This document shows positions 14,148 through 64,000 of a stretch of DNA of 64,000 bases, piece after piece; position 1 is the stretch's first letter, and the number at the start of each line of letters is the position of its first letter. The DNA lies in assembly GCF_024223415.1 (NCBI RefSeq), contig NZ_CP100500.1. One strand, given 5' to 3'. The notes under the pieces are model-generated. The model did not search any database. It was not told the DNA's origin and worked only from the letters and a program-made list of their open reading frames with translations. The translations under genes were made by a program, and so were the position numbers. The stretch comes from Escherichia coli. Lineage in GTDB: Bacteria; Pseudomonadota; Gammaproteobacteria; Enterobacterales; Enterobacteriaceae.

Positions 14148-14163
14148 TTCGGCGCACTGTATG

Positions 14164-19851: not shown

Positions 19852-19852
19852 A

Positions 19853-20425: not shown

Positions 20426-20464
20426 AAAACACTAAAGGGGCTTTTAAGCCCCTTCTGTATGCTG

Positions 20465-21660: not shown

Positions 21661-21837
21661 GCGGCAAAAACTCAACCGTTTTTCATAAGGAAATCAGCAA
21701 TCGCACCGATCGTTTTCCCGCCTGGTAATGAATATTGGCGAGCACATTAACAGGCGGGAAAGTGGCCCCAGCGTCCTGGCACCACGGGCGAGAATAATCA
21801 TGATTCAGTTCGAGTAAAATATGCCGATCCGCTCAGT

Positions 21838-21896
21838 GAACAACCTGGAACAACCACGAACAAATAATTTACAAAACCTGAAAAAATAAATAAACT
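21838..21896 (+). promoter_or_regulatory. Promoter of the 157-aa gene with phased upstream repeats: GAACAA x3 at 10-bp spacing, then -35 TTTACA, 17-bp spacer, -10 TAAACT
   Basis: GAACAA at 21838, 21848, 21858; TTTACA 21868-21873; TAAACT 21891-21896; AGGAGG SD at 21924 and ATG at 21938. Confidence 0.45.
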
Positions 21897-21937
21897 GTTC
21901 CGTACATTTTCTGCTCGTTAATCAGGAGGAACGAACT

Positions 21938-22411
21938 ATGTCAGAAAATGAACTGAAAAAAGCAATGTTCATTCAGCAACGATTGCAGATTCTCCACCTT
22001 GGTAAACACTATGATGAGTTCAGTGATTCTTACGTGTATGCCTGGGAGGCAGATGTTTATCCTTTCTTGCAGGATGGCGACGGAAGTATTCCTGCTCGCC
22101 CACATGAAATTTACGAAGAGTTTTTCGGCACATCTAAAAACAAAGCCAAAAAGATATACGATCGTCTGTGCAAAGCCTGGCACGACCAGGAGGCACTCAC
22201 ATTCTATAAACTAGAAAGTGAATATGGTGTAACAAGTAGCAGCATGCACAGATGGACACGAAGTGATTTACTTCACATCTGCCGCTATCTGTATCTTGAG
22301 GGGTGTTTCGATAAAGATTTCTGGGAAACATTACTGGAAAACGGAAAATGCCCAAGCGAAGCACTTTACCTTAGCGATGAATTTAATCGCGATACAGAGA
22401 TCGACTTCTAA
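21938..22411 (+). CDS. Hypothetical protein (157 aa), stand-alone opposite-strand cargo gene
   Basis: Strong SD and promoter, own bidirectional terminator; only plus-strand gene inside the structural/regulatory part of the island; no recognisable domain. Confidence 0.65.
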   Translation: MSENELKKAMFIQQRLQILHLGKHYDEFSDSYVYAWEADVYPFLQDGDGSIPARPHEIYEEFFGTSKNKAKKIYDRLCKAWHDQEALTFYKLESEYGVTSSSMHRWTRSDLLHICRYLYLEGCFDKDFWETLLENGKCPSEALYLSDEFNRDTEIDF

Positions 22412-22448
22412 AAAAATGGCCTGGAAAATACCAGGCCATTATTATTCT
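22411..22448. terminator. Bidirectional intrinsic terminator between convergent genes
   Basis: atggcctgg-aaaata-ccaggccat flanked by an A-run on one side and T-rich sequence on the other. Confidence 0.55.
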
Positions 22449-22695
22449 ACCGTTTCACGGGATCACGCATTCTGCGCCTTATTTTCCACAGATATTCGAT
22501 CATCGCTTCCACCTGCTCACGGTTGGTTGCGAAAATTTCCCCGGTCAGTGAGCTACGCAGAAAATCATGATGATCCACAAAAAATAACGCATCGGAAGAA
22601 AGCAGCCGGAGATATTTTTTTGCTGTCGTGCTTTCCAGATCATCAAAATCATGAAGCTTTTTATGTTGCTGGACTTCTTCAAATGTCACTGGCAT
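22447..22695 (-). CDS. Hypothetical protein (about 82 aa)
   Basis: Internal ATG (MPVTFEEVQQHKKLHDF...) downstream of the PerC-like gene. Confidence 0.45.
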   Translation of the reverse strand: MPVTFEEVQQHKKLHDFDDLESTTAKKYLRLLSSDALFFVDHHDFLRSSLTGEIFATNREQVEAMIEYLWKIRRRMRDPVKR

Positions 22696-22740
22696 GTTTC
22701 CTCCTGCTACCACGATACCAGAAACAGTTAACAACCGTTA

Positions 22741-23022
22741 TCAATTATCCCCTTTTTTAGGGTAGTTCCTGAACATCTCACCGCCAGGCTTCTGTAAGCC
22801 CATCCCGGTATGTGTGCGGTTTATGGCCTCTTTCAGTATTCCGAAATTATCCGGTATGACTGGTGGGCGTGCTGCCTTACGGATACATTCCGCGCGACGC
22901 TTTGCCACTTGTTCGCGCTCCTTGTCAGTGCTCACCAGCCACATAACATCAGCCCATCGCGCGGCCGCCCTCCGGTAAAATCCTTTCGCCTCCAGTTCCT
23001 CCGCTATCCGGTCATGTACCAT
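22741..23022 (-). CDS. PerC-family-like transcriptional regulator (tentative)
   Basis: About 93 aa from internal ATG: MVHDRIAEELEAKGFYRRAAARWADVMW...; the EAxGxxRRAAxxW motif resembles PerC-type activators. Confidence 0.4.
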   Translation of the reverse strand: MVHDRIAEELEAKGFYRRAAARWADVMWLVSTDKEREQVAKRRAECIRKAARPPVIPDNFGILKEAINRTHTGMGLQKPGGEMFRNYPKKGDN

Positions 23023-23032
23023 CGTCACCCCC

Positions 23033-23443
23033 TCAGAACGGAATATCATCACCGTAAGGGTCATCGCCTCCCGCTGGTGGCTGATTACCCTGTGTGCCTG
23101 TGGTTTTGCGTCTGTTCCCACCAGGACGTGCCGCACGCGCACTGATTACGCTGTCTGCGATAACCTGCCAGCCCTGCCGCGTTTCCCCGTTCTGTCCGGT
23201 CCACTGGCTGACCTGCATCGTGCCGGATACGCTGGCAACGTCGCCTTTTTGATGTTTAGCCAGAAAGTCGGCCTGTTTGCCAAATGCGATGACCGATAAC
23301 CATAACGTCGCCTGTCCGTCCTGTGCCTGGCCGCATGGTAAAGATACCGCCATACGCGCCAGCGTCATCGGTGTACCCTTACTGGTCTGTTTTACCTGCG
23401 GGTCGTCCACCAGCCGCCCGTAAGCTGCAATTTGTGCTGTCAT
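23033..23443 (-). CDS. ssb: Single-stranded DNA-binding protein
   Basis: 136 aa with OB-fold-like core and acidic C-terminal tail ending DDIPF. Confidence 0.85.
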   Translation of the reverse strand: MTAQIAAYGRLVDDPQVKQTSKGTPMTLARMAVSLPCGQAQDGQATLWLSVIAFGKQADFLAKHQKGDVASVSGTMQVSQWTGQNGETRQGWQVIADSVISARAARPGGNRRKTTGTQGNQPPAGGDDPYGDDIPF

Positions 23444-23452
23444 ATTGCCACC

Positions 23453-23758
23453 TCAGTGAAGCGATCCGGCGTTGTTCTTTTTCATCTCTTCCATCATTTT
23501 TTCAGTGAGCATTACGCACTGAAAACCCATGTTTTTGATGTCTACGGGTTTCATGCCTTTGTCAGTGGATATCACAGGCAGAATATCCTGATACACATCG
23601 CCGCCAGGGTAACTAAGCACACAAAGCGCCCATGATGCCACGGGTGAGGATCCTTGGTCTGTTTCAACCCACCAGCCTGGTGTAGCTGCGCTTATTTGCA
23701 GAATCGTGATCCGTCCGTTGTGCTTGTAAAATTTTTCACCACATTTTGGTTCGCTCAT
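23453..23758 (-). CDS. Hypothetical protein (101 aa)
   Basis: ORF in operon context between ssb and the ori region. Confidence 0.4.
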   Translation of the reverse strand: MSEPKCGEKFYKHNGRITILQISAATPGWWVETDQGSSPVASWALCVLSYPGGDVYQDILPVISTDKGMKPVDIKNMGFQCVMLTEKMMEEMKKNNAGSLH

Positions 23759-24006
23759 GCTTCCACCTCTCCGGTTTTAACGTTGATGGTTGTCACCTGT
23801 TCCGCTCCGGCAATCTCCCGTTCTGTCAGCGTGGCAAAATTTGCCGCTACCGTTGTCATGAATGCGCTTATCAGTTCGGGATGTGCTTTCGCGTATCCTT
23901 CTCCCGCGTGGCGGTCTATCGTTCTGATTGCCACCTTTAAGGCGTGCTCTGTCATGTCTAACGCTTTATATTTTGGCGCTGTCTTATCTCTGGTTTTTCT
24001 GTTCAT
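23755..24006 (-). CDS. Hypothetical protein (start uncertain)
   Basis: ORF 23755-24036 trimmed to an internal ATG because its 5' end runs into the iteron array. Confidence 0.3.
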   Translation of the reverse strand: MNRKTRDKTAPKYKALDMTEHALKVAIRTIDRHAGEGYAKAHPELISAFMTTVAANFATLTEREIAGAEQVTTINVKTGEVEA

Positions 24007-24225
24007 TCCCCACCACTCCCCACTTTTGCTCCCCACTTTTTAAATTCCCCACTTGCTCCCCACCTCGTTTTTTGAGTGAATCTAATGCTTTGTTTTTCAT
24101 TGCGTTTTTTGCTCCCCACTTTTTTGGATGTATACAGGTGGGAAAGTGGGGAATTATGTTTCAATTTTGTTAAATTCCCCACTCTCCCCACTTTTACTAC
24201 CCACTTTTTACAGTGGGTAAACATC
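24005..24225. repeat. Iteron array (at least 8 copies of tccccactttt-like units in both orientations around an AT-rich core); putative replication origin
   Basis: Repeats ctccccactttt, gctccccacttttt, attccccact and inverted gtgggaaagtgggg, immediately 3' of the primase/helicase gene. Confidence 0.6.
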
Positions 24226-25614
24226 ATCCCCATCGACACAAATCACGCCGTCTTTTTCCAGCTTGTACAGCCAGCGCCGGAAGTGCTTCATCTCATACCC
24301 CAGCTTTTTCATATCGTCGCGGAGAAGGGCGATAGTGCATGGCTCTTTGTGTGCCGTCCGCGTTCTGATGCACTGCCATAGCGCGGCGTGATTCTCCGAT
24401 TTGTTGCCTGCTTCCTCGATGCGCTCCAGTTCAGCAGGGGCGCGGGGAACGTCAATCACCACCATAGACACAATCTCTTCGCCATCTGTATCGGTGAACA
24501 CCTCCACGCTTTTAAGGTCGTATGCACTCTCTTTTGGCTCCTCTGCGTCCTTCATCTTCGTACACGCCGCCACCAGTGCTGTAACGTCTGAATTTTCCCG
24601 GCTGATTCGGTACTCTGCATCAAGCGCGGCACGGAATGCGCTGGAACCACGCGCCCCCTTTGTTTCATCCTTGCCGGAATGGTGAACCACCAGCACCGTG
24701 GCCCCTGTGGCCTGCTTTATCGCGTCACACCCCTGGATAAATGCGCCCATATCACGGGAATCATTTTCATCATTCCCACCAAAGCAACGGGCCAGTGTGT
24801 CGATCACAATCAGCCGCACATTTTCGCCCGTTCTGCTCTTAACAAGTCCGGCAGTCCTGATAACCTGCTCCACATAGTCAGGCGATGCAGGGAAAACAGG
24901 CGCGTTAATGATGCACAAATCTGTAACCACCTTGTCGTGGGTTATCTCCCACGCCTTAACGCGGCGTTTTACGCCCATGCTGCCTTCACCAGCGATATAG
25001 ATAACCGCCCCCTTACTTACCCTGCGGCCTCCCCATGCCATACCTGTGGCAACATGGCACGACCAGGAAATGGCGAGGAACGATTTATAAGAACCGCTGG
25101 CCCCGTAGGTGCTGCATAATGACTCAGCCGGAATAAGCCCCTTAATTACGTAGCTTTGCTGCGCGTCGAATCCCTCAGAACCCCATGAGATGGGAAGCGT
25201 GATTTTTCGCTTTCCGCCATTCATGACCAGGCTTTCCCCTCTCTCCCATGTTTCCCGTAGTCGTGGTAGCTGGTCGCTCCAGTCCTCCAGCAGTTCGAAA
25301 TTTTCAGAAAGTAGCCGCGCCTCCTGGACTCCGGCGATCGCCAGTTTTGTGGCAATGGTCAGCATCTGCATATCGTCCAGGTTTCCGGCGCGTATGACCT
25401 TTGCCCTGTATCGTCCTTCATCAACAATCTGTAAGTTGTCCAGTTCGCTTAACTGATAACGGCCCAGGTAAACCGGAGGGATGGGATCGCCTGCTTTTTT
25501 GGCCTGTGCAATCATGTAATGTTCTGCAAAGGAGTGAGCATTATCACCCGCAAAAATAACCGCCTCAGTGTGTTTATCTTTCGGTAACAGTTTTACGTTC
25601 GGTGCAAGTTTCAT
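24208..25614 (-). CDS. Replication protein: primase-like N-terminus plus RecA/DnaB-like AAA ATPase (pri-rep)
   Basis: 468 aa; Walker A-like IYIAGEGSMGVKRR and Walker B-like LIVIDTLARCFG, C-terminal winged-helix-like tail. Confidence 0.75.
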   Translation of the reverse strand: MKLAPNVKLLPKDKHTEAVIFAGDNAHSFAEHYMIAQAKKAGDPIPPVYLGRYQLSELDNLQIVDEGRYRAKVIRAGNLDDMQMLTIATKLAIAGVQEARLLSENFELLEDWSDQLPRLRETWERGESLVMNGGKRKITLPISWGSEGFDAQQSYVIKGLIPAESLCSTYGASGSYKSFLAISWSCHVATGMAWGGRRVSKGAVIYIAGEGSMGVKRRVKAWEITHDKVVTDLCIINAPVFPASPDYVEQVIRTAGLVKSRTGENVRLIVIDTLARCFGGNDENDSRDMGAFIQGCDAIKQATGATVLVVHHSGKDETKGARGSSAFRAALDAEYRISRENSDVTALVAACTKMKDAEEPKESAYDLKSVEVFTDTDGEEIVSMVVIDVPRAPAELERIEEAGNKSENHAALWQCIRTRTAHKEPCTIALLRDDMKKLGYEMKHFRRWLYKLEKDGVICVDGDDVYPL

Positions 25615-25898
25615 TTCTTACCCCCTGCGACCAGCATTTCACGGATTTTGCGGATATAACTTGCAGCACGTTTCTGATTAACGGCTTTACGATGGCCCAC
25701 CAGCGTGAAATCACGCCGGAACTGATAAACAGGCATAACGCAGTCATATTCGTAGCCTTCACGGCGGTAAGTTACGCGACGTTCCTCCACGCTTTTAATT
25801 GTTACCGTGCCGCCGTAGTTATCTTTGAAAATATCGCCGGGGCGGATTTCAGGCCGAGCGGGGCCGCTGGCAGTAAAGCCAGAATATTTAAGTTTCAT
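25611..25898 (-). CDS. Hypothetical protein (95 aa)
   Basis: Stop overlaps the pri-rep start; basic protein. Confidence 0.4.
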   Translation of the reverse strand: MKLKYSGFTASGPARPEIRPGDIFKDNYGGTVTIKSVEERRVTYRREGYEYDCVMPVYQFRRDFTLVGHRKAVNQKRAASYIRKIREMLVAGGKK

Positions 25899-25903
25899 TA
25901 TTT

Positions 25904-26137
25904 TTATTCTCCGGTGTGCTGTTCTTTATATCTGTCGTGCAATAGGTCTATTTCCTGCAACTCTGTTATTACAGGTTCAAGGAGAGTTATCAGAGATTTA
26001 ATAATCCGCGCATTCTTTACATCACGCTCATTATCGCCAAATGTATCTGGATACATTTGCAATATTTCGTACATACCTTCAGCGTAAGCAATGGCACTAA
26101 ATGCGCGGTCTATTGTTTCGAGGTAAATATCACGCAT
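25904..26137 (-). CDS. Hypothetical protein (77 aa)
   Basis: Compactly spaced ORF in the same operon. Confidence 0.4.
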   Translation of the reverse strand: MRDIYLETIDRAFSAIAYAEGMYEILQMYPDTFGDNERDVKNARIIKSLITLLEPVITELQEIDLLHDRYKEQHTGE

Positions 26138-26138
26138 A

Positions 26139-26387
26139 TTAATCCCCGTCCGTCGTTTTTCTTAAAATAACCTCTGTCACGAAATCAGCATAATCGGCGG
26201 CGATATTCAGTACATCAAGCCCCGTTGATTTATATTCTCTCGTGGAAAGTAAGAAAAAAGCCGCTCTAATAAGCTCTGGCATTGACGAAAGCGCATCAGC
26301 CGCATCATCAGGAACGCCGGAAAATTCCTGTTTCAGGGAATTAAAACGATCATCACGCATAACCCCCCCCATTTTCACAATCAGCAA
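26139..26387 (-). CDS. Hypothetical protein (82 aa)
   Basis: Compactly spaced ORF in the same operon. Confidence 0.35.
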   Translation of the reverse strand: MLIVKMGGVMRDDRFNSLKQEFSGVPDDAADALSSMPELIRAAFFLLSTREYKSTGLDVLNIAADYADFVTEVILRKTTDGD

Positions 26388-26634
26388 TCAGGATGGCTTT
26401 GGCCTCATTCAGTGCCATATCAGCGGTAAGCTGTGCGTAGGCCAGCAAATGCGGGATTATTGCCCCTGTATATTCCGTCTCTCTGGTAATGTGTTTTTCT
26501 GCGGTTGCTGCCGTGCATGAAATATCAATCAGCGCGTGCATCAGCGTTTTGATGGCTTCGGCGGCTGCGTCCGGACGGGTGTTATTGCACATGGCACACC
26601 TCCTGACGGATACGGGCGGCGAATACAGCGACAC
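26353..26634 (-). CDS. Hypothetical protein (start uncertain)
   Basis: ORF overlapping its neighbours; probable start at an internal ATG. Confidence 0.3.
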   Translation of the reverse strand: MSLYSPPVSVRRCAMCNNTRPDAAAEAIKTLMHALIDISCTAATAEKHITRETEYTGAIIPHLLAYAQLTADMALNEAKAILIADCENGGGYA

Positions 26635-26780
26635 AACCGGACGGGCAACGGTTACGCGCTTCGCGTTCCGTCCAGGCGGTCACGTGGATAATTTGAGATT
26701 CTCCGGCACTCAGTGCCAGAAAACGCCACACAAAGGCGGTTTGTGTGTGCGCTAGTCGTGGGGTATGCTGTGTTCCAGCC
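26582..26780 (-). CDS. Hypothetical small protein (about 66 aa), first gene of the leftward early operon
   Basis: C-terminal part of spurious 267-aa ORF, from ATG near 26780: MAGTQHTPRLAHTQTAFVWRF...; divergent from the RHH gene. Confidence 0.35.
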
Positions 26781-26867
26781 ATAATCGTTACTCCTGTTAA
26801 CGGTTTGGTTAGACGCCCTGCATGTGTTACAGCACTGCGGGGCGTTGTCTTTTTAACGGCTTTCGTG

Positions 26868-26917
26868 ATAGGGTGTACACCTATCAAGCAAAAAAATAAC
26901 GCTATAGGTGTACACAT
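26868..26917. promoter_or_regulatory. Two operator-like palindromes centred on GTGTACAC in the divergent regulatory region
   Basis: atagggtgtacacctat (26868-26884) and tataggtgtacacat (26903-26917); the second overlaps the RHH start codon. Confidence 0.45.
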
Positions 26918-27110
26918 GTCAACAGTTATTAAGCGAGATAAAAAACCAAAGGGAACAGGAAAAGCCCCCCCATTCCATATGCGAATAGCTCCAGAACTGA
27001 AAGAGCAGTTTGATAATGAGGCCAGCAATGATGGGGTAAGCCTAGCCAACTGGCTTAAAGAGTTGGGACGCAGTGAACTGAAGCGGCGCGGTATAGAACC
27101 CAAAGGTTGA
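26916..27110 (+). CDS. Ribbon-helix-helix (Arc/MetJ-like) DNA-binding protein; candidate island repressor
   Basis: About 64 aa from internal ATG: MSTVIKRDKKPKGTGKAPPFHMRIAPELKEQFDNEASNDGVSLANWLKELG; only regulator on the plus strand, divergent from the early operon. Confidence 0.5.
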   Translation: MSTVIKRDKKPKGTGKAPPFHMRIAPELKEQFDNEASNDGVSLANWLKELGRSELKRRGIEPKG

Positions 27111-27143
27111 TAGCCCACCAGCAAGCCAGGACACTGATCACAT

Positions 27144-27171
27144 TGGCCACCGTGACAGGTGGCCTTTTCTT
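27144..27171 (+). terminator. Intrinsic terminator after the RHH gene
   Basis: ggccacc-gtgaca-ggtggcc followed by ttttcttt. Confidence 0.5.
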
Positions 27172-27437
27172 TGCCCGTTATCCGGCAATTGTGGCGCTTC
27201 GCCACACGGTTGATATAATCCCACTGCTCATATTCATTTTTTGCGCAGCAGGTAAATTGTTCAGAAAGGCGGCTCCTTATCGGGGCCGCTTTTTTTATGC
27301 CTGAAAAACCGCGATTTTGTTGTTTTTCAGTTTCACAAGGCCGAACGAAGCCCCGCCCCTGTTCCGGCGTATATCCAGTCTTCATGGTTAAATCTCTGTA
27401 TTAGTGGATGGGTGGCGGCTGTGTGCCGCCAGTCTTT

Positions 27438-27626
27438 TTAGTGAACTGCCTCGCAGCTTTCCTTCCATGCCAGAACTTCGGATAAAGACCAGCCAACGGA
27501 ACGACCGCCCAGCTTACGCCGTGATGGGAATTGTCCGGCCTTTTCCAGGCGGTAGCGGCATGAGCGGCTAAGCCCTGTTAGCTTTTCGCATTCTTTTTCA
27601 CGTATAAAACGATCAGTGCTTAACAC
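27438..27626 (-). CDS. alpA: AlpA-family phage transcriptional regulator / excisionase-like
   Basis: 62 aa, LTGLSRSCRYRLEKAGQFPSRRKLGGRSVGWSLSEVLAW matches the AlpA/Xis HTH pattern; adjacent to int. Confidence 0.75.
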   Translation of the reverse strand: MLSTDRFIREKECEKLTGLSRSCRYRLEKAGQFPSRRKLGGRSVGWSLSEVLAWKESCEAVH

Positions 27627-27908
27627 TATTGCCCCCTTTCGTTTCTTAAAGAGTTATTTCGTGTTCTATTGCGTTGGTATGTGTCTGATTGTGTCAGGGT
27701 GATTCAGAGTTGGCAAATGTTGATGGCGGGTATTTTACAGAAACGGGGTGATTTTAATAAAAAACATTTTAATTCAGTATTATGCAAAGGCATAAAATCT
27801 CGTTTCATGCCTTTTTTCTCACTATTTAAAGCGTTATTCGCTAATGTATAAAAAACCAGTTGAGCATTAAAAATCAGCAACTTATAAATCTGTATATTTT
27901 TTGGCCTC

Positions 27909-27954
27909 TTGTTCGTGGTTGTTTCACGTTGTTGCGTATTGTTGCACGTTGTAT
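27909..27954 (-). promoter_or_regulatory. Five 10-bp-phased direct repeats (TTGTT on plus strand = AACAA on minus) between int and alpA
   Basis: TTGT motifs start at 27909, 27919, 27929, 27939, 27949. Confidence 0.5.
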
Positions 27955-28000
27955 CTGTGCACTTATCCAGTATGCGCATACTGAAAAAACACGAAAAAAA

Positions 28001-29248
28001 TTATTTTCTTCTGGCTACTGGTAGCGTGGTTACGTTTTCATGTGCTCCCGCCAGTATCTCCAACCGCTCCACCCACATATCCAGCGCATTGCGTTTCGCA
28101 TCCAGATAACGGGAATGATTATAAACTCGCTGCATTCCTGGCATCTGGTGGCCTGTAAGCTGCTCCACGACATGCGGATCAACGCCTAAATCGTTCAGCA
28201 TGGTTGTAAAGGTGCGCCGGATGTCATGCAGTGACCAGTGAGGGTGTTTAAGCCTCCTGTGCACTAATCTGCCGTACTGCGACACGCTGGTTTCCTGTTT
28301 CACTTCCCCCAGCAATAAGTCCGTGTGCCTGTTCTGCTCCACCAGCTGCGTGACGAACGGCAGTATCGCTTCCGGTATGGGCCGGAATATGGCTACCTTC
28401 GTTTTGCTGTGCTCCTTCGGAACGGTCCAGAGCATTTCGGTAAAATCCCACTCGCCGATCTCCGATAACCTCAGTTCTACTGTCCTGCATCCGAAGACAA
28501 TCAGGAGGCGGATTAGTGCGACGTAGTAAGGGGAAAATATTTTTTTGTCCAGTGCCTGCAATAATTCGCCAAGTTCTTTGTTACTTAAGACACGCTGACT
28601 TATATCCGGTTTTTTCCCAACGTCAGCCACACTCATATCATCAAGAACGTTGCTGATTGCATAGCGCCGCTTCCGGCAGAACTTAAGCGCCTGTTTGCAT
28701 GTCTGTAGCAGGAACCCGGCGGAAACAGGGGCTTGCTTTGCCACCCGATCAAAACAGGCCAGCCAGTGCCGTAGCTCGCATTTATCCAGCGGCATAGGGC
28801 CAATGTGCTGTATTACGTGATTATTTAGCCGCTTTTTCAGTGGGTCATAATCCACACGGTTTTCCTTTGCGTACGACTCAAGCCAGTAGGTGAGCGCATC
28901 GCCAACCGTTACAGGCTTTAACGCTTCCTGTACGGTGTAATTCATCTCATGACGTGGATTTTTCCCCTCAGCCAGCCATGCGCGACACTGGGCGGCTTTT
29001 TCCCTGGCTGATTTCAGGCTCAGATCAGGATAATTTCCCAGCTTAATGCGTTCCGGTGGTGCGCCCCTTCCCGTTCCGGCCCTGTAAGTGAAATACCAGG
29101 TTAAAAGGCCGCTGGTTGAATGCCTGACGGTCAGGTTTCCACCGTCATTAAGAAAGGCTGTTTTTTGGGCGGGTGTGCCGTTGATTTTCCTTAGCTGTGT
29201 ATCACTCAGTTTGTTAAGTGCTCTGCGCATAATTTTGATTCCGGTCAT
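28001..29248 (-). CDS. int: Tyrosine-type site-specific integrase (P4-like)
   Basis: About 415 aa; N-terminal arm-binding-like region, catalytic HDIRRTF...HQMPGMQRVYNHSRY; start codon (GTG 29251 or ATG 29248/29230) abuts the 26-bp repeat. Confidence 0.9.
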   Translation of the reverse strand: MTGIKIMRRALNKLSDTQLRKINGTPAQKTAFLNDGGNLTVRHSTSGLLTWYFTYRAGTGRGAPPERIKLGNYPDLSLKSAREKAAQCRAWLAEGKNPRHEMNYTVQEALKPVTVGDALTYWLESYAKENRVDYDPLKKRLNNHVIQHIGPMPLDKCELRHWLACFDRVAKQAPVSAGFLLQTCKQALKFCRKRRYAISNVLDDMSVADVGKKPDISQRVLSNKELGELLQALDKKIFSPYYVALIRLLIVFGCRTVELRLSEIGEWDFTEMLWTVPKEHSKTKVAIFRPIPEAILPFVTQLVEQNRHTDLLLGEVKQETSVSQYGRLVHRRLKHPHWSLHDIRRTFTTMLNDLGVDPHVVEQLTGHQMPGMQRVYNHSRYLDAKRNALDMWVERLEILAGAHENVTTLPVARRK

Positions 29249-29251
29249 CAC

Positions 29252-29277
29252 AATTAACTACACCATTAACTACACCG
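29252..29277. repeat. Inner 26-bp direct repeat, right copy
   Basis: Exact match to 14122-14147. Confidence 0.8.
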
Positions 29278-29283
29278 ATCGTT

Positions 29284-29319
29284 GCACAAAGGGCTACAAC
29301 GTGAAACAAGCTGGAACAA
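29284..29319 (+). promoter_or_regulatory. 10-bp-phased NNACAA repeats (GCACAA, CTACAA, AAACAA, GAACAA) upstream of int on the opposite strand
   Basis: Motifs start at 29284, 29294, 29304, 29314; homologous to the array at 14164-14189. Confidence 0.4.
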
Positions 29320-29399
29320 GAAAAATCACAAATTTGTTTATAATCAAAAACATAATGCACAATCTGAAACATTATGAAACGGCAAAAAACACTAATTGA

Positions 29400-29411
29400 T
29401 AAAATATGTCC
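29400..29411. repeat. Right copy of short direct repeat taaaatatgtcc; candidate attR core
   Basis: Matches the sequence at the phoQ stop codon (14039-14049). Confidence 0.5.
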
Positions 29412-48393: not shown

Positions 48394-48934
48394 TTATACT
48401 TTGTTATTCAAAATCAGTTGCCCGTTACTATCTAGCGGGATCTGCGTACCCGGATCGCGGTCCATGCGGATTTTGCCCTGCTGATCGCCAATCTTATAGG
48501 TCACATCATAACCGAGCATTTTTTCTGACTTGTCATACACCGTTTTACAACGCTGTTGCGTAGTCGTGTAAGTATCGCTTTCCTGGAGAGAGCCCTGGAT
48601 CTGGTTACCGGCATATCCCCCCCCCCAGCGCCCCCACAACAGTGGCGACATCTTTACCACGACCACCACCAAACTGATGCCCTATCACGCCGCCAGCAAC
48701 AGCGCCGAGCACCGACCCGGTAATGCGATTTTCATCCTGCACCGGTCGACGATGGGTCACTGTGACGTTGCGACACTCCTGACGCGGTGTTTTAACCGTT
48801 TCCTTGATTGGGGTTGCAGAAACAACCTGAGCGTATTGCGGGCCACGTTCAAACACGTTCAGACTGGCCACTGCCGCTACGCCAAGCGCAGCTGCGACAC
48901 CAATCCCGATACCCGCCAACATTGATTTATTCAC
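48394..48934 (-). pseudogene. ycfJ: ycfJ interrupted by a frameshift at a C10 homopolymer (48617-48626)
   Basis: ORFs 48605-48973 and 48394-48672 overlap and together reconstruct one YcfJ-like protein, joining at GALGGG/YAGNQIQ; span is one nucleotide longer than an in-frame gene. Confidence 0.7.
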
Positions 48935-50734: not shown

Positions 50735-50860
<126 letters not shown>

Positions 50861-50864
50861 GCAT

Positions 50865-51407
50865 TTACCCGAGGGTTTTGAACGCTTTAATGCGCTGCAA
50901 ATGCGGGGAGATATTCTTGAATTTGTGCGTCTGCTCTTCGTCCCAGACAATCTCGTAATAATGATGCAACTCTTCAGATGTCCGCTGGCTGTTAAGCGCT
51001 TCATCATTACGCGACAAAATCACCAGGCAACGATCGCGATTCTTCTCGCGGAAGTTGGTCACACACTTAGTGGCAATATCGGCATACTCTTCCGGGCGAT
51101 CAATCTTGCCTTCCATGTTCTCATAAGGGAACAAATTAGGGTTGAAGATCACCTGGCGGATATCGCAAAGAAAACCAATCCGTTCCGCCCAGTATCCGCC
51201 CAGACCAACGCCGCAAATCAGGGGACGCTCGTCGACGTTCAGTTGCAACATTTTGTCCACTTCTTTGAGCAGATGCTGCATATCATGTTTCGGATGCCGC
51301 GTACTGTAGCTTATCAAGCGTACATCCGGGTCAATAAACTGCAATTGTAAGACTTTCTCGTGGTTACCCGGACTGTTAGAGTCAAAACCGTGTAAATAGA
51401 TAATCAT
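50865..51407 (-). CDS. ycfP: Esterase-like protein YcfP (alpha/beta hydrolase, UPF0227)
   Basis: 180 aa from internal [21 protein letters not shown]... Confidence 0.8.
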
Positions 51408-51429
51408 CGCTTCCTCACATAAGCCAGGG

Positions 51430-53270
<1,841 letters not shown>

Positions 53271-53290
<20 letters not shown>

Positions 53291-53912
53291 CTTTACCTGA
53301 CCAGATAATTTCGCCCGTCTGCACCAGCATCAGCTGCATTTGTAGGGTCGGAGCGTTAACGTTGCCAGAGGCGCTGGAGTACAGCACGTAATGAGCGCCG
53401 ACATTGCGGGCAATGCCTATGGCTTTACTACGGGTGCCTAAACTATCCTGCGGCGACAAACCTAACTGTTGCTTAGCCATCGACAGCTGCTGGGCGGAAA
53501 CCAGGGTAAATTTCCCGTTATTAGCCAGCGCATTTCGCAGCGTTTCGGTCGCTTCTGCGGCATTCAGCGAACCGTTAGTACGGTTGTTAACGCTATCAAC
53601 CAGCAGGACGCTACCCGCAGTCACCCCGTCAGCCCCAAGCATCTTACTGACCATCGGCTGCATTGCGCCATTCCAGTCATAATGGCGAATATGCGGCGCA
53701 GGCGGTGCAGTTTGATCTTCGTGCTCAATTGGGCCTGGCTGCTGCGGGATCGTCGGCACCGAGGGCACTGTGGGGACAGGCTGTTGTGGCTCGGCTGGTT
53801 GTTCCGGCGCTGGTTTCACTTCTTCTACCGGTGCAGGTTCACGTTGCCCCACACACCCGGCGAGAAACATCGCCAGCGCGGTAATCAAGGCGTAGCGACT
53901 CATTTTTGTCAT
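53271..53912 (-). CDS. lpoB: Outer membrane lipoprotein LpoB (PBP1B activator)
   Basis: 213 aa, lipobox LAGC, proline-rich linker. Confidence 0.85.
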
Positions 53913-53925
53913 CAAGATTCACCCC

Positions 53926-54303
53926 TTACAAATATAGATAAAGTCTGACTTTGTGCGCCCCCAGAAAATTGGCGCTGCCATACAGCGTTACCGCCGAATG
54001 TGCGGGAATGGTAACGCTGCGTGGCCTTTCCAGAGGATGCATTTCCAGCCCTCTGGCGTCATACCAGTAAAAACGATAATGAACGGTAACGGGTTCTTGC
54101 CTTTCGTTATAAAGCGTTGAGGATGCTGAAGGTTGAATATCAGACGTCGAAAGGACGGGCTTTTCTGCACTGATGCCCGCAGCCAATAAAGATGACTCCA
54201 TCACCAGCGATTGCTCATCATTCACCGGAATTTCCGGATGTGAACGACAGCCCACCAGCAGTAACAACGCCAGAGACACCAACCCAAAGCATCCTTTTCT
54301 CAT
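53926..54303 (-). CDS. ycfL: Lipoprotein YcfL
   Basis: 125 aa with lipobox LVGC. Confidence 0.75.
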   Translation of the reverse strand: MRKGCFGLVSLALLLLVGCRSHPEIPVNDEQSLVMESSLLAAGISAEKPVLSTSDIQPSASSTLYNERQEPVTVHYRFYWYDARGLEMHPLERPRSVTIPAHSAVTLYGSANFLGAHKVRLYLYL

Positions 54304-54305
54304 CG

Positions 54306-54665
54306 TTACAGACCTTTATGCGCCAGCATTGGTCCCAGCGGACGGCCACCCAACAAGTGCATATGGATGTGGTAAACCTCTTGTCCGCCATGGCGGTTGG
54401 TGTTCATGATCAGACGATAGCCATCTTCGGCAATACCTTCTTGCTCAGCAATTTTTGCCGCTACGGTGATCATGCGTCCCAGCGCCTGCTCATGCTCAGC
54501 TGACACGTCGTTCACAGTCGGAATGAGGATATTCGGAATGATCAGAATATGCGTTGGCGCTTGCGGCGAAATATCGCGAAACGCCGTTACCAGATCATCC
54601 TGGTAGACGATATCGGAGGGGATCTCACGACGAATAATTTTGCTGAATATAGTTTCTTCTGCCAC
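54306..54665 (-). CDS. hinT: Purine nucleoside phosphoramidase HinT (HIT family)
   Basis: 119 aa from GTG start; HIT motif HIHMHLL. Confidence 0.85.
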
Positions 54666-54998
54666 GACATTTTCCTTTTTCAAATAGCCATGCGTTGCGC
54701 CATGCTACGCCGCGCCACACTGCGAGTATAGAGTATGGTCGAGTTAAACCTGCTCTTTCAACCTTAACTCACGATTTCTTAAGCAAAAAATCGTTTTGCT
54801 GCCGTATATATCTCCATTATTCCCATTTCTGCCTGCGAATGCGCTGAAAAGACATTCTCTGTTTGGTTTACACGACAAATATGAATGCGTATATTTCTCA
54901 TTTGCATTTACAAACAAAATTATTCGCACACTAAATATAACCGCTCATCACCCTCCTCCGGCATGAGCCTGACGACAACATAAACCAAGAGATTTCAA

Positions 54999-57191
54999 AT
55001 GCTTTCAACACAATTTAACAGGGATAATCAATATCAAGCCATCACCAAACCGTCACTACTTGCCGGTTGCATAGCATTGGCACTATTACCTTCTGCCGCT
55101 TTTGCTGCACCAGCCACTGAAGAAACGGTGATTGTTGAGGGTTCAGCCACAGCTCCAGATGATGGCGAAAATGATTACAGCGTAACGTCTACCTCTGCGG
55201 GTACCAAAATGCAGATGACTCAACGTGATATTCCTCAGTCGGTCACTATTGTTAGCCAGCAGCGGATGGAAGATCAGCAGTTACAAACGCTGGGCGAAGT
55301 GATGGAAAACACGCTGGGGATCAGCAAAAGTCAGGCGGATTCCGATCGTGCTCTTTATTATTCCCGCGGATTCCAGATCGATAACTATATGGTTGATGGT
55401 ATCCCCACCTATTTTGAATCGCGCTGGAATCTGGGCGACGCACTTTCTGATATGGCACTGTTTGAACGCGTAGAAGTAGTGCGTGGCGCGACAGGACTCA
55501 TGACCGGGACGGGTAATCCATCTGCGGCAATTAATATGGTTCGAAAACACGCGACCAGTCGTGAATTTAAAGGCGATGTCTCGGCGGAATACGGTAGCTG
55601 GAACAAAGAACGGTATGTGGCGGATTTACAAAGCCCACTCACCGAAGACGGTAAAATCCGCGCGCGAATTGTCGGCGGCTACCAGAATAACGACTCATGG
55701 CTGGACCGCTACAATAGTGAAAAGACCTTCTTCTCCGGCATTGTCGATGCTGATTTAGGCGATCTTACGACGCTTTCAGCCGGTTACGAATATCAGCGCA
55801 TTGATGTTAATAGCCCAACCTGGGGCGGTTTACCGCGCTGGAATACTGATGGCAGCAGCAACAGTTACGATCGCGCACGCAGTACCGCACCTGACTGGGC
55901 GTACAACGATAAAGAGATCAACAAGGTCTTTATGACCCTGAAGCAGCGGTTTGCTGATACCTGGCAAGCGACACTGAATGCCACCCACTCTGAAGTCGAA
56001 TTTGACAGCAAAATGATGTATGTCGATGCCTATGTAAACAAAGCGGATGGTATGCTGGTTGGGCCATACAGTAATTATGGACCTGGCTTTGATTATGTCG
56101 GCGGCACCGGTTGGAACAGTGGCAAACGTAAAGTTGATGCGCTGGATTTGTTCGCTGACGGTAGTTATGAATTGTTTGGTCGTCAGCACAATCTAATGTT
56201 TGGTGGCAGTTACAGCAAACAAAACAATCGTTACTTCAGTTCATGGGCCAACATCTTCCCGGATGAAATTGGCAATTTCTACAACTTTAATGGCAATTTC
56301 CCACAAACCGACTGGTCACCACAGAGCCTGGCGCAGGACGATACCACACATATGAAATCGTTATATGCTGCCACTCGTGTCACCCTTGCCGATCCGCTGC
56401 ATCTGATCCTCGGCGCACGTTATACCAACTGGCGGGTTGATACGCTGACTTACAGCATGGAGAAAAACCACACCACGCCTTACGCTGGTCTGGTGTTTGA
56501 CATCAATGACAACTGGTCGACCTACGCCAGCTATACCTCTATTTTCCAGCCGCAAAATGATCGTGACAGTTCAGGCAAATATCTGGCTCCAATCACCGGT
56601 AACAACTACGAGCTGGGTCTGAAATCGGACTGGATGAATAGCCGTCTGACCACCACGTTAGCCATCTTCCGTATTGAGCAGGATAATGTCGCTCAGTCCA
56701 CCGGTACACCTATCCCCGGCAGCAACGGCGAAACCGCCTATAAAGCGGTGGATGGGACAGTCAGTAAAGGTGTGGAATTTGAACTCAACGGCGCAATTAC
56801 CGACAACTGGCAGCTGACATTTGGCGCAACGCGCTATATTGCAGAGGATAACGAAGGAAACGCCGTTAATCCTAATCTGCCTCGCACCACGGTTAAAATG
56901 TTCACCAGCTACCGGTTGCCTGTCATGCCAGAGTTGACGGTCGGCGGTGGTGTTAACTGGCAAAATCGCGTGTATACCGACACCGTGACACCGTATGGCA
57001 CCTTCCGCGCCGAGCAAGGTAGCTACGCGCTGGTGGATCTCTTCACCCGCTACCAGGTGACGAAAAACTTCTCGTTACAGGGAACGTCAATAACCTGTTC
57101 GACAAAACCTACGATACCAACGTGGAAGGTTCTATCGTCTACGGCGCACCGCGTAATTTCAGCATTACCGGCACGTATCAATTCTGAATAA
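54999..57191 (+). CDS. fhuE: TonB-dependent ferric coprogen/rhodotorulic acid receptor FhuE, with a -1 frameshift about 35 codons before the normal end
   Basis: 730-aa ORF; after ...VTKNFSLQG the frame changes near 57081, while the adjacent frame encodes NVNNLFDKTYDTNVEGSIVYGAPRNFSITGTYQF-stop. Confidence 0.85.
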   Translation: MLSTQFNRDNQYQAITKPSLLAGCIALALLPSAAFAAPATEETVIVEGSATAPDDGENDYSVTSTSAGTKMQMTQRDIPQSVTIVSQQRMEDQQLQTLGEVMENTLGISKSQADSDRALYYSRGFQIDNYMVDGIPTYFESRWNLGDALSDMALFERVEVVRGATGLMTGTGNPSAAINMVRKHATSREFKGDVSAEYGSWNKERYVADLQSPLTEDGKIRARIVGGYQNNDSWLDRYNSEKTFFSGIVDADLGDLTTLSAGYEYQRIDVNSPTWGGLPRWNTDGSSNSYDRARSTAPDWAYNDKEINKVFMTLKQRFADTWQATLNATHSEVEFDSKMMYVDAYVNKADGMLVGPYSNYGPGFDYVGGTGWNSGKRKVDALDLFADGSYELFGRQHNLMFGGSYSKQNNRYFSSWANIFPDEIGNFYNFNGNFPQTDWSPQSLAQDDTTHMKSLYAATRVTLADPLHLILGARYTNWRVDTLTYSMEKNHTTPYAGLVFDINDNWSTYASYTSIFQPQNDRDSSGKYLAPITGNNYELGLKSDWMNSRLTTTLAIFRIEQDNVAQSTGTPIPGSNGETAYKAVDGTVSKGVEFELNGAITDNWQLTFGATRYIAEDNEGNAVNPNLPRTTVKMFTSYRLPVMPELTVGGGVNWQNRVYTDTVTPYGTFRAEQGSYALVDLFTRYQVTKNFSLQGTSITCSTKPTIPTWKVLSSTAHRVISALPARINSE

Positions 57192-57246
57192 CACCTGTAA
57201 AAAAGGCAGCCATCTGGCTGCCTTAGTCTCCCCAACGTCTTACGGA

Positions 57247-58680
57247 TTAGTGGTTACGGATGTACTCATCCATCTCGGTTTTCAGGTTATCGGATTTAGT
57301 ACCGAAAATCGCCTGAACACCAGAACCAGCAACCACTACGCCCGCTGCGCCCAGTTTCTTCAGGCCGGCCTGATCCACTTTAGACACATCAGCAACGCTG
57401 ACGCGCAGACGGGTAATACATGCGTCGAGGTTAGTAATGTTTTCTTTACCACCAAATGCAGCAACCAGAGCCGGTGCCATTTCGCTGGTACCTGTCGCTT
57501 TTGCATCTTCAGTCGCGTCTTCACGACCCGGCGTTTTCAGATCCAGTGCTTTAATCAGCACGCGGAAGATGGTGTAGTAAACAATCGCATAACCGATACC
57601 GACGATCGGGAACAGCCACAGTTTGCTGCTGTTACCAGACAGAACGATGAAGTCGATCAGACCGTGCGAGAACGACGTACCGTCACGCATCCCCAGAAGA
57701 ATACAGATTGGGAATGCCAGGCCTGCCAGAATCGCGTGGATGATGTACAGGATCGGCGCAACGAACATGAAGGAGAACTCGATCGGCTCGGTGATACCGG
57801 TCAGGAACGAGGTCAGCGCCGCGGAGATCATAATACCGCCCACTTTCGCGCGGTTTTCTGGTTTAGCAGAGTGCCAGATAGCAATTGCGGCAGCTGGCAG
57901 ACCGTACATTTTGAACAGGAAGCCACCAGACAGTTTACCCGCAGTCGGGTCACCCGCCATATAACGCGGAATGTCGCCGTGGAAAACCTGACCTGCTGCG
58001 TTGGTGTATTCACCAATCTGCATCTGGAAAGGTACGTTCCAGATGTGGTGCAGACCAAACGGTACCAGGCAACGTTCGATGAAACCGTAAATGCCAAACG
58101 CAACTACCGGGTTCTGGTAAGCAGCCCACTGAGAGAAGGTCTGGATTGCAGAACCAATCGGCGGCCAAATGAAGGACAGCACAACGCCAGTAAAGATGGC
58201 AGCCAGGCCAGAAATGATCGGCACAAAGCGTTTACCGGCAAAGAAGCCAAGATACTCAGGCAGCTTAATACGGTAGAAACGGTTAAACATGTACGCTGCG
58301 ATCGCACCGGAGATAATCCCTCCGAGTACGCCAGTATCCGCCAGGTGTTTAGAGGCGATTTCTTCAGCAGGTAAATGCAGTACCAGTGGCGCAACCACGG
58401 CCATGGTTTTAACCATGATGCCATAGGCAACAACTGCGGCCAGCGCGGATACGCCATCGTTATTGGTAAAGCCGAGGGCGACACCGATCGCAAAAATCAG
58501 TGGCATGTTTGCAAAGACGGAACCGCCTGCTTCTGCCATAACATGCGATACAACGGCGGGCAGCCAGCTGAAATTCGCGGAACCGACGCCCAGCAGAATA
58601 CCTGCGATAGGCAGTACGGATACCGGCAGCATCAGCGATTTACCGACCTTTTGCAGGTTAGCAAATGCATTCTTAAACAT
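57247..58680 (-). CDS. ptsG: Glucose-specific PTS enzyme IICB (PtsG)
   Basis: 477 aa, multi-TM EIIC domain plus C-terminal EIIB (CITRLR). Confidence 0.95.
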
Positions 58681-58974
58681 AATTGAGAGTGCTCCTGAGT
58701 ATGGGTGCTTTTTTTACGTTCTCACGCGTGGCAAGGGGGGAGAGCCTCGCCGTGTACAGGGCATCTAAGCGCCCTTTATTTATTACACAGAGTAAAATAA
58801 TTCAGTGCCAATTTGTTTGACGGCTATCACGTTTCAACTTCAGATCATTGGAGAAGTTGCACATTTTGACAAAACATATGTCACAATATTTCAAACGTGG
58901 TTATTCACCGCCCAATTTTCGGCGGTGAACTTTACTCGTTTTAGCCATTAATTACGAGCTTTAAAAAAACTCAT

Positions 58975-59772
58975 TCAACGGATGGATTGAAGGCGGGAAG
59001 CGTCGATGTGAAACAGACGGGCGAAGTTATCGGTGGTTACCTGCGCCAGTTCTTCAACGGCAACACCTTTCAACACAGCCATGTATTCTGCAACGTCACG
59101 AACCATCGCAGGTTGATTCTCTTTTCCTCGATGCGGTACCGGCGCAAGGTAAGGTGAGTCAGTTTCCACCAGTAACCGATCCAGGGGGACATAACGCGCA
59201 GCATCGCGCAGTTGCTCCGCATTACGGAAGGTCACAATGCCGGAAAAGGAGATGTAAAATCCGAGATCCAGTAATTTGCCCGCCGTTTCTCTGTCCTCTG
59301 TAAAACAGTGTAGTACGCCACCGCAATCCGTCACTTTTTCTTCGCGCAGAATTGCCAGCGTATCGGCGCGGGCGTCACGGGTATGGACGATAACCGGCTT
59401 GTTCAGTTCACGACCAATTTGGATATGATGGATGAAGGACTCTTGCTGACGTACTTTAGTTTCCGGTGTGTAATAATAATCCAGCCCGGTTTCACCCAGC
59501 GCTACAACACCCTCTTCTGCCGCCAGACGGCGTAAATCTTCTACATCGTAGGGATCATTCTGGTTGAGTGGATGCACGCCACAAGAAAATACGACGTTGT
59601 CACGTTCGCCTACCAGATCCCGCATGTGTAAATAACCCGGTAATGTTGTGGCGACTGCCAGACAAAATTTCACATCGCGTGCGGCGGCTTTCGCCAGAAC
59701 GTCATCCACGTCCTTATGCAAAGATTCATAATCCAGACCATCGAGATGGCAGTGTGAGTCGACTAAAAACAT
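58975..59772 (-). CDS. ycfH: TatD-family metal-dependent DNase YcfH
   Basis: 265 aa from internal [14 protein letters not shown]... Confidence 0.85.
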
Positions 59773-59782
59773 GATGTCTCTC

Positions 59783-60787
59783 TTAAAGATGAGGAACCGG
59801 TAGCACAACGCCCGGTTGCAGGTAATGCTCAATACGCAGTAAAAGATCGGTGATGAGAAGCTCGCGGTTGATGCCTGTGACAGATATTAACTGTTCACGA
59901 ATGTGGCAAACATCCCCCAGTATAGCCTGCAGGCGCGAGGGAGAAAGATGGTTTGCTAGTTCGACGACCAGGCCCGGCACATCAACATTGGTCACCTGCG
60001 CAGCGCCATGATGGCGTTTTAGCGCATCCATCAGCAACGTTGCCAGCCAGTGTAAACGCGCCGGAGCTTGTTCATGATTAAGGGCCGCCAGCAGCGAATA
60101 CCAGTCGCCCGATGGCACGCTATATGCCAACGCCTGACACAATGTTTCACGAGCCTGCCAGTTATCTCCCTGAAACAACGCCAGTGCCGCGCCAGGCGAA
60201 CCGGCGCTTAAGCGCAATGCGGCAAGTAATGCATCCTGTGACATTGTCACTTCGCGTGAAAGCCAGGTCACGGCGTACTGTTCCGGCGGCGGCGCAAGGT
60301 AATGTAACCGACAACGACTACGTAATGTTGCCAGTAAACGTTCAGGCTCGTGGGTAGCCAGGAAAAACCAGGTTTCTGCTGGTGGCTCTTCAAGCGTTTT
60401 CAGCAATGCGTTAGCCGCGGCGTCGGTTAGTAAGGCAGCATCGGTTACCCAGACAACTTTCGCACCACCTAAGCGTGCGTGCTCATTCAGCTTTTCGGTG
60501 ACCTCACGTACCGCATCAATGCCCAGCGCATTTTTCCCTTTTTCGGGAGCCAGGGTGTAGTAATCGGGATGCGTGCCAGCCTGCATCAACTGACATCCAC
60601 GACAGTGACCGCAACTTTTGTGGCCCTGCGGTTGTTGGCAGAGTAAATAACGGCTCAGGGCGTAGATTAAAGCATCATCGCCCATGCCCGGTAACGCCTG
60701 AATGAGTAGCGCATGGTGACCTCTTCCGGCCTGATAGCTGGCTACCAGTTTTTCGAAATCAGGTCGTAACCATGGATACCATCTCAT
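59783..60787 (-). CDS. holB: DNA polymerase III delta-prime subunit HolB
   Basis: 334 aa, [28 protein letters not shown]... Confidence 0.9.
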
Positions 60788-61425
60788 GCGTCCAACTCCT
60801 TCACCCAGTGGGTCACGGTAGTGCGGATTGCATCCATCACGGCCTCCAGCGGCTGGGTGGCATCAATGGTATGAATACTTTTATCTTGTGCAGCCAGTTC
60901 CAGATAGCGGGCGCGGGTGCGATTAAAGAAATCGAAAGACTCTTGCTCAATACGATCCAGCTCGCCGCGCGCACGCGCGCGTTTTAAGCCAACTTCCGGG
61001 GTAACATCGAGATAGAGCGTTAAGTCGGGGCGAAAATCCCCGAGAACAGCATCACGCAGTGTTGCCAGCATATGTTGGTCAATACCACGTCCTCCGCCCT
61101 GATACGCCTGAGTGGAGAGATCGTGACGATCGCCAATCACCCAGGTGCCGTTAGCCAGCGCAGGTTTGATGACCGTTTCTACCAGTTGAACGCGCGCGGC
61201 ATAAAACATCAGAACTTCGGCTTTATCGGTAATGACTTCATCGCCTACCGATTTGATATCCAGCACCAGGCTTCTTAACTTTTCGGCAAGTTGCGTACCG
61301 CCAGGTTCCCGAGTGAAAACCATGTCGCGGATACCCAGTTGCTCGAGCGTCTCAACCACCACATTACGCGCGGTAGTTTTGCCTGCGCCTTCCAGCCCCT
61401 CAATGACGATATACTTACTGCGCAT
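60784..61425 (-). CDS. tmk: Thymidylate kinase
   Basis: 213 aa, P-loop [10 protein letters not shown]. Confidence 0.9.
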
Positions 61426-62437
61426 TTTTTTCCTTAAGCACTTTCAGATAATCCTGCACAGACTTGTTATGACTGGCAAGATTGGTATTAAACGTGTGAC
61501 CACCTTTACCATCGGCCACAAAATAGAGATACGGCGTTTTTGCCGGATGCGCAGCAGCCTTCAGCGAATCCGCCCCCGGCGTAGCTATCGCACCTGGCGG
61601 CAAACCGGTAATGGTATAGGTGTTATACGCTGTCGGCGTTTCCAGGTCTGCACGAGAAAGTTTGCCATTATAACGCTCTCCCATCCCGTAAATCACGGTT
61701 GGGTCGGTCTGCAGGCGCATACCAATGCGTAAACGGTTGATAAATACCGAGGCAACCTGATCGCGTTCACTGGCAACGGCGGTTTCTTTTTCGATAATTG
61801 ATGCCATCGTCACCAGCTGATTTTTATCTTTATAAGGCAGACCGTCCGCACGCCCTTCCCAGGCGCTATCGACCGCTTTCACCATTTTCTTGTGCGCTCG
61901 CTTGAGTAACGCGACATCGGTGGTATTGGCGGTATACATCCAGGTGTCTGGCCAGAACCAACCTTCAATCCACTCCGGGTTTTCCAGTTCAAGTGCCTGC
62001 GCTACGGTGATGTACTTATCATCGCTCAGCGTGTGCTTGATATACGGGGCCTCACGCAATTGCTTGAGGTAGTCGCTCAGACGCATCCCTTCTACCAGTC
62101 GCAGCGGGAACTGTGCTTCTTTACCGCTTTCCAACAATTTCAGCATCTCGCGCACGGTCATCTGCGGTGTAAAGCGGTAAGTCCCGGCTTTAAAGTGAGA
62201 AAGATCCGGTTCGATACGCAGCAACCATTGAAAAACCCGTGGGCGATTGATGATCTTATCGGCATAAAGCTGTTCACCAAGCGCCAGACGTCCGGTCCCT
62301 GGCTTCAGGGTAAATATCGTCTCTTCTTTGATAAGCAATTTGCTGTCGGCAAGATAGCGAACCTTCCAGACGCCCACACCAGCGGCGATACCCAGTACCA
62401 CCAGCAATAACAAGATTATCAATAACACTTTTTTCAT
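61415..62437 (-). CDS. mltG: Endolytic murein transglycosylase MltG (YceG)
   Basis: 340 aa, N-terminal TM anchor, YceG-like domain. Confidence 0.85.
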
Positions 62438-62439
62438 GA

Positions 62440-63249
62440 CTAATTCGGGCGCTCACAAAGTGGGGCTAAGTATTCATATAACGTTGCTGACGAAAAGGAG
62501 ACATCGCCACAGGCACGTACGGGCATCACTGGCATTAACGCATTACAAATAACCATCTCATCTGCCTGCAACGCCTCTTCCAGAGAAGCTTGCACTTCGA
62601 CAAGCTGATAAGAGGATTGTGCCAGTAAACGGATACAGAATTGTCGCATAATGCCGTTAACACCTGCCTGATCCAGTCGCGGCGTATAAACTACATTGCC
62701 CTTCCGCCAGAACAAATTAGCCGCACAGCATTCCGTAACCCACCCTTCGCTGTCAAGGACCAGCGCCTCATCAGCGTTTGTCTGCTCAAGATGAGAGCGA
62801 ATCAATACTTGCTCAAGCCGATTAAGATGTTTAATACCTGCAAGATGAGGATTGCGCCCCAGCCGCACCGGGCTTAGCGCCAACGTCATCCCCTCGTTAC
62901 GCAAACGGTAGTAATGTGCAGGATAAGCCGTAACGGAGAGAATCCGCGTTGCCGGTCCACTGTTCAATGTGCTGTACCCTCGCCCGCCACTACCGCGACT
63001 GATCACGACTTTCAGTACACCATTTTGCTGTTCTGCTGCCAGCGTTTTCATCTCTTGTTCAAGCTGAGGCCAGAAGTCACAGGAAATCATCAACCGCTGA
63101 CAAGCATCCTGTAGTCGCTGGATATGCGCCGATAACAAACTGACTTTACCGTCGATAACTCTGGCGGTGGTAAAACAACCATCACCAAACTGCGTTGCCC
63201 GATCGCTTACTGCCAGCGATTCCTGCTTATGACCGTTAATTAAGAACAT
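62440..63249 (-). CDS. pabC: Aminodeoxychorismate lyase PabC
   Basis: 269 aa, class IV aminotransferase fold. Confidence 0.85.
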
Positions 63250-63321
63250 ACCGGCTCCTTATCAGAGAATTGTTAGTGTGGCAGCATGTTCACTACGGAA
63301 CAAGTCGGAATAAAAGCTAAG

Positions 63322-63350
63322 AAAAAAGGCCCGCAAGCGGACCTTTTATA
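63322..63350 (-). terminator. Intrinsic terminator downstream of fabF
   Basis: ggtccgc-ttg-cgggcc hairpin followed by ttttttc on the minus strand. Confidence 0.5.
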
Positions 63351-63368
63351 AGGGTGGAAAATGACAAT

Positions 63369-64000
<632 letters not shown>

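Follow-up and report, generated by a model that had tools for sequence, protein, structure and literature searches.

In outer-membrane β-barrel proteins the final strand forms hydrogen bonds with strand 1 and thereby closes the barrel. Work on the C-terminal phenylalanine of PhoE reportedly dealt with outer-membrane proteins deprived of their terminal aromatic residue. The final strand also harbours the β-signal recognized by BAM, which ends in an aromatic/hydrophobic-x-aromatic/hydrophobic motif, and outer-membrane proteins contain internal BAM signals as well (PMC10945584). Final-strand mutants of OmpC, OmpF and LamB have been characterized as engineered porin/autotransporter substrates that were assayed directly (PMC10945584). 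The intact siderophore receptor FhuE of Escherichia coli is a canonical TonB-dependent transporter, in which a plug closes off the 22-stranded barrel; coprogen is its high-affinity substrate, and rhodotorulic acid and ferrioxamine B are taken up less well (PMC6503915). In Salmonella Typhi and Paratyphi A, fhuE and fhuA have been independently inactivated: the lesions have reached fixation throughout these host-restricted serovars, within a large pseudogene wave (PMC2658671).

The locus discussed here lies in a window of 64,000 nucleotides of E. coli chromosomal DNA (contig NZ_CP100500.1 of assembly GCF_024223415.1), in which the genes follow one another in the order hinT, fhuE, ptsG, as they do in annotated genomes. 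The fhuE open reading frame occupies positions 54999..57191 on the plus strand and consists of 730 codons followed by TAA. Residues 1–695 of its product represent a normal FhuE with signal peptide, plug and barrel, and over this extent the sequence differs from the intact protein of close relatives (WP_000953457.1, 729 residues) only by the substitution S426N. The relatives' protein aligns with the crystallised FhuE (PDB 6E4V) over residues 37–729 with a score of 1589 bits, and the crystallised chain reaches the C-terminal Phe729. The gene is thus orthologous to the characterized fhuE of E. coli, with which it shares residues 1–695, the hinT-fhuE-ptsG synteny and the plug and barrel domains. 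It departs from it at the very end: the last 34 residues, including the strand terminating in Tyr-Gln-Phe, are replaced by 35 out-of-frame residues.

The departure coincides with a short run of guanines at 57080..57082 (plus strand). The window has GGG where all relatives examined have GGGG, and in the alignment this 1-base deletion spans codons Q694/G695. The frame is normal through Gln694-Gly695; at the junction, TTA CAG GGA ACG, the codons are CAG (Q694), GGA (G695) and ACG, versus CAG GGG AAC in the wild type. Residues 696–730 are out of frame, so that the product ends ...YQVTKNFSLQG-TSITCSTKPTIPTWKVLSSTAHRVISALPARINSE*. This tail is encoded at 57084..57191 on the plus strand, where the shifted frame meets no stop for 35 codons, until a TAA located 3 bases beyond the native one; it finishes ...ARINSE, with a glutamate in last position and no terminal aromatic motif. 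The remnant of the original frame can be read in the adjacent, -1 frame at 57083..57188 (plus strand), where NVNNLFDKTYDTNVEGSIVYGAPRNFSITGTYQF is followed by TGA. These are the native C-terminal barrel strands, no longer translated in frame, and the native ending ...TGTYQF is found only there. The stretch NVNNLFDKTYDTNVEGSIVYGAPRNFSITGTYQF is the C-terminus of intact FhuE in close relatives, and a single mismatch (Ala versus Thr at residue 718) separates it from the crystallised protein. The sequence-only reading of this DNA had proposed a -1 frameshift that replaces the last 34 residues of the receptor, its terminal aromatic strand included, and had described a reading frame running through ...VTKNFSLQG into foreign sequence next to a frame that still encodes a C-terminal strand with an aromatic end. 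The translations of the open reading frame and of the adjacent frame, together with the alignment of relatives, uphold this account. The same reading had located one missing base in a G/A run at 57081-57084: the loss of one base stands, but the run is made of G alone and lies at 57080-57082, one base off.

The deletion is not the only private change in fhuE: at 56275 (plus strand) the window has A and four relatives have G, a substitution that turns AGT into AAT and gives Ser426Asn. Serine is found at this position in 6E4V and in the four relatives. The effect of the substitution would be moot if the frameshift already kills FhuE. Downstream, between the convergent fhuE and ptsG, an inverted repeat, GGCAGCC-ATCT-GGCTGCC, was read from the sequence at 57205..57222, with no strand assigned and an A/T run on the fhuE side. 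It is probably the terminator of ptsG or one shared by the two genes; a scan with a consensus terminator model did not report a hairpin in the fhuE/ptsG intergenic region. The frameshift leaves the repeat unaffected.

The distribution of the deletion was surveyed in complete genomes. Over positions 39001-64000 the closest complete genomes are SCU-316, NCTC10444, GPEC1446, KV7, NCTC9112 and O78 strain 3, all at ∼100% identity to the window. The four of these that were fetched (SCU-316, NCTC10444, GPEC1446 and KV7) all have GGGG and an intact fhuE of 2190 nucleotides encoding the 729-residue WP_000953457.1. A probe of 66 nucleotides centred on the lesion was then matched against complete E. coli genomes: it finds a counterpart in 5,423 of them, always within a 95–99% identity band, and the matches listed cover 67 subject bases, which corresponds to one gap. 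The deletion occurs in none of these 5,423 matching genomes. As no match is identical to the probe, the deletion is a derived state; and as the flanking 66 nucleotides are conserved in 5,423 genomes that all differ from the window at this point, it is not a chance feature of the sequence. Relative to intact orthologues, both in the four relatives and in the 5,423 complete genomes, the indel amounts to 1 base and is therefore not a multiple of three.

Public sequencing runs tell a complementary story. The exact 730-residue frameshifted product is encoded on three contigs in a collection of 15 billion proteins, and the only source of these entries is Logan, whose contigs are assemblies of public sequencing runs. 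They comprise a 31.1-kb contig from ERR3437215, an identical contig in a second sample and a 10.5-kb contig from SRR19977217. The ERR3437215 contig matches positions 50783-64000 of the window with 100.000% identity over 13,218 bases, without mismatch or gap, although the window itself may have been assembled from these reads, and the contig would then not be independent. The SRR19977217 contig carries the same GGG and the same S426N, the latter being common to the Logan contigs that encode the identical protein. Relative to the window it has one indel, in an intergenic run of G (58735), and two adjacent SNPs (60965-60966). It thus shares the deletion while deviating at three positions, which indicates a non-identical genome or data set and a lesion that was inherited rather than produced once as an assembly artefact. 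The deletion is accordingly reproduced in assemblies of three read sets, as distinct from raw pile-ups, and, judged by these contigs, it is inherited within a small clone. A literature search for ERR3437215 and SRR19977217 found no papers.

The consequences for the protein are apparent at the level of domains. The plug is recognized by Pfam profile PF07715 at residues 75–175 (E = 4.2e-19). The barrel profile PF00593 (TonB_dep_Rec_b-barrel) covers residues 254–695 of the window's product and profile positions 10–431 of 436, whereas in the intact relative it extends over residues 254–700 and all 436 of 436 positions. The barrel is therefore incomplete, and the C-terminal strand with an aromatic end is missing. 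The native ending YQF fits the β-signal sub-motif and the new ending NSE does not. Strand boundaries for residues 696–729 were inferred from the solved structure 6E4V and its description; a single-sequence AlphaFold2 model of intact FhuE had a mean pLDDT of 29.9 and was discarded for this purpose.

Taken together, these data argue with considerable confidence for a real deletion of a single G, recent in one E. coli clone, that turned fhuE into a frameshift pseudogene with probable loss of function. The simplest origin for the change from GGGG to GGG at 57080-57082 would be replication slippage in a short homopolymer. Translation would proceed normally through Gly695 and then continue out of frame for 35 codons to the TAA, and the resulting polypeptide would lack the final barrel strand ending in Tyr-Gln-Phe. 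Deprived of this strand, the barrel is not expected to close against strand 1, and it is for this reason that the frameshift probably inactivates fhuE. The likeliest outcome is that FhuE would not be inserted in the outer membrane and would be degraded in the periplasm, leaving a strain without FhuE-mediated uptake of ferric coprogen, ferric rhodotorulic acid and ferrioxamine B. Two processes could soften this picture: some recognition of the frameshifted protein by BAM could persist through internal signals, and ribosomes that on rare occasions slip spontaneously by -1 on A-GGG-A could still make a little native FhuE.

Placed beside the described systems, the allele has likenesses and differences on both sides. 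It resembles the final-strand mutants of OmpC, OmpF and LamB in having lost an aromatic-x-aromatic final strand, with BAM-dependent assembly failure as the expected result (PMC10945584). It differs from them in that those substrates were engineered and assayed directly, whereas the FhuE allele is known here from its sequence, and in that the whole last strand and probably part of the preceding one, not a single residue, are replaced. The resemblance to Salmonella Typhi and Paratyphi A lies in the same gene being hit by independent point lesions in particular enterobacterial lineages (PMC2658671). In contrast to the serovar-wide Salmonella lesions, the one in the window is confined to a tiny clone and the other members of the lineage keep fhuE intact.

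Three other explanations deserve consideration. The one that survives best accepts the deletion as real and questions its neutrality: the loss of FhuE would have been selected, for instance because it shut out a phage, bacteriocin or sideromycin that uses FhuE to enter, or because it spared a host-adapted clone the cost of a receptor for which it had no use. Phages and colicins commonly enter cells through TonB-dependent receptors, and, besides the frameshift, fhuE has acquired the private non-synonymous change S426N. The independent inactivation of fhuE and fhuA in the two Salmonella serovars (PMC2658671) also speaks for such a scenario. Against it, an excess of private mutations in fhuE, considered as a sign of relaxed or positive selection, did not hold: two of about 14 private changes fall in a gene that makes up 4.5% of the sequence, which is not significant (rough Poisson P ∼0.13). 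Nothing retrieved in a literature search names FhuE as a phage receptor, the term appearing only in gene lists, and the allele, present in three read sets and in 0 of 5,423 complete genomes, gives no indication of recurrence or spread. Selected loss is consequently regarded as improbable. Its more specific form, in which loss was positively selected in this clone, for instance as a way of evading some phage, bacteriocin or sideromycin that depends on FhuE and is yet to be described, and in which S426N came earlier on the same path, is somewhat less probable again; if it were true, FhuE would be a liability under some natural condition.

The second explanation holds that the genome truly has GGGG and an intact fhuE, one G having been lost from the homopolymer by the sequencing chemistry or a polisher. 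The sequence-only reading had rated such an error as equally likely. The position of the difference in a homopolymer is in keeping with it, as is the nature of the only other private indel: in ∼48.7 kb of the window outside a large island, there are about twelve private SNPs and two private indels, namely G4 to G3 in fhuE and G9 to G10 in ycfJ, the latter likewise homopolymeric. Moreover, errors of this kind do occur in reference assemblies of the lineage, in SCU-316 at CCWGG sites and homopolymers and in NCTC10444 in ycfJ, and one of the Logan data sets could consist of the same reads as those used for the window. Nevertheless, the identical 730-residue product was assembled from three read sets with two accession prefixes, and one of the contigs comes from a non-identical genome. 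The identity of the 31-kb contig over 13.2 kb suggests accurate short reads (the platform being inferred), in which a run of four bases is rarely miscalled. The window also has no indels with respect to NCTC10444 over 13.5 kb, where 9 SNPs are counted. A sequencing error is thus now disfavoured and is an unlikely cause of the missing G, and the deletion is very probably a real mutation, as far as the assembled sequences allow this to be judged.

The broader suspicion that the window is an assembly rich in homopolymer errors was likewise rejected. Over positions 1987-5807, dozens of 1-base indels and substitutions separate SCU-316 (NZ_CP054371.1) from the window; many lie at CCWGG (Dcm) sites and others in homopolymers. 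In SCU-316 the genes iraM, ycgX, bluR and bluF are annotated as frameshifted, while all four are intact in the window and in NCTC10444, with no indel between these two; the errors at 1987-5807 therefore belong to SCU-316. They are probably methylation-related long-read errors left in the RefSeq record.

The third explanation, a programmed or usefully leaky -1 ribosomal frameshift by which full-length native FhuE would still be made, can be put aside as barely credible. Native ...LQG-NVNN... would be restored exactly if the P-site tRNA-Gly moved by -1 from GGA onto the GGG that overlaps it. However, CAG GGA ACG does not make up an X XXY YYZ heptamer, since re-pairing on AAC is impossible for the A-site ACG, and the downstream RNA shows no more structure than shuffled sequences do (MFE -12.8 kcal/mol versus a shuffle mean of -15.45, z = +0.99). 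The frameshift is, moreover, shared neither by the relatives examined nor by any of the 5,423 complete genomes, which marks it as a lesion of new origin where a recoding signal would have been conserved.

A number of other features of the window emerged from the same comparisons. A 15.3-kb island at 14050-29401 is missing from the closest relatives and is inserted right at the stop codon of phoQ. It is flanked by a 10-bp direct repeat, AAATATGTCC, at 14040-14049 and 29402-29411, the left copy of which overlaps the phoQ stop codon. Its best relative is an element of strain GF60 with 96.5% identity, inserted there in tqsA. This element is annotated with an integrase, AlpA, Icd-like proteins, RepA helicase, SSB and PerC, and further with HK97 capsid, prohead protease, portal, head-closure and connector proteins, HNH and TerS/TerL; no tail or lysis genes figure in the annotation. 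Coverage of at least 80% of a 16.5-kb query spanning the island is reached in only 13 of 5,426 complete genomes. By the gene content of this relative, the phoQ island looks like a capsid-forming phage satellite (cf-PICI-like).

The gene ycfJ (48394-48934, minus strand) is split into two open reading frames by a run of ten G on the coding strand at 48617-48626. The tract measures G10 in the window, G9 in relatives and G8 in NCTC10444, where the gene is annotated as frameshifted. Many further assemblies in NCBI, ENA and Logan encode the same truncated product of 109 residues. The length of the tract thus varies recurrently, whether through genuine strand slippage or through a systematic error of sequencing. 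Another homopolymer length difference between close relatives is located at the 3′ end of bluF (window position 3300), where GPEC1446 has A9 and the window and NCTC10444 have A8; the A9 of GPEC1446 gives a different BluF C-terminus. Finally, seven of the nine SNPs that distinguish the first 13.5 kb of the window from NCTC10444/GPEC1446 are clustered at 2228-5421, a 3.2-kb segment from bluF to iraM, a pattern more suggestive of a small recombined patch than of mutations that arose independently.

The allele at the centre of this analysis, a recent loss of one G from fhuE, is a new one of a familiar kind: an ordinary strain-specific frameshift pseudogene in an accessory siderophore receptor. With 730 residues against the 729 of the intact protein, the open reading frame seems full length, and gene callers based on open reading frames, including the Logan gene calls, report an intact protein. 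The exact 730-residue sequence is, on the other hand, a handy marker for the small clone in public read archives. As for the organism, the strain would best be treated as fhuE-negative, and it would be expected to forgo the piracy of coprogen and rhodotorulic acid, which are fungal hydroxamate siderophores, and to make weaker use of ferrioxamine B.
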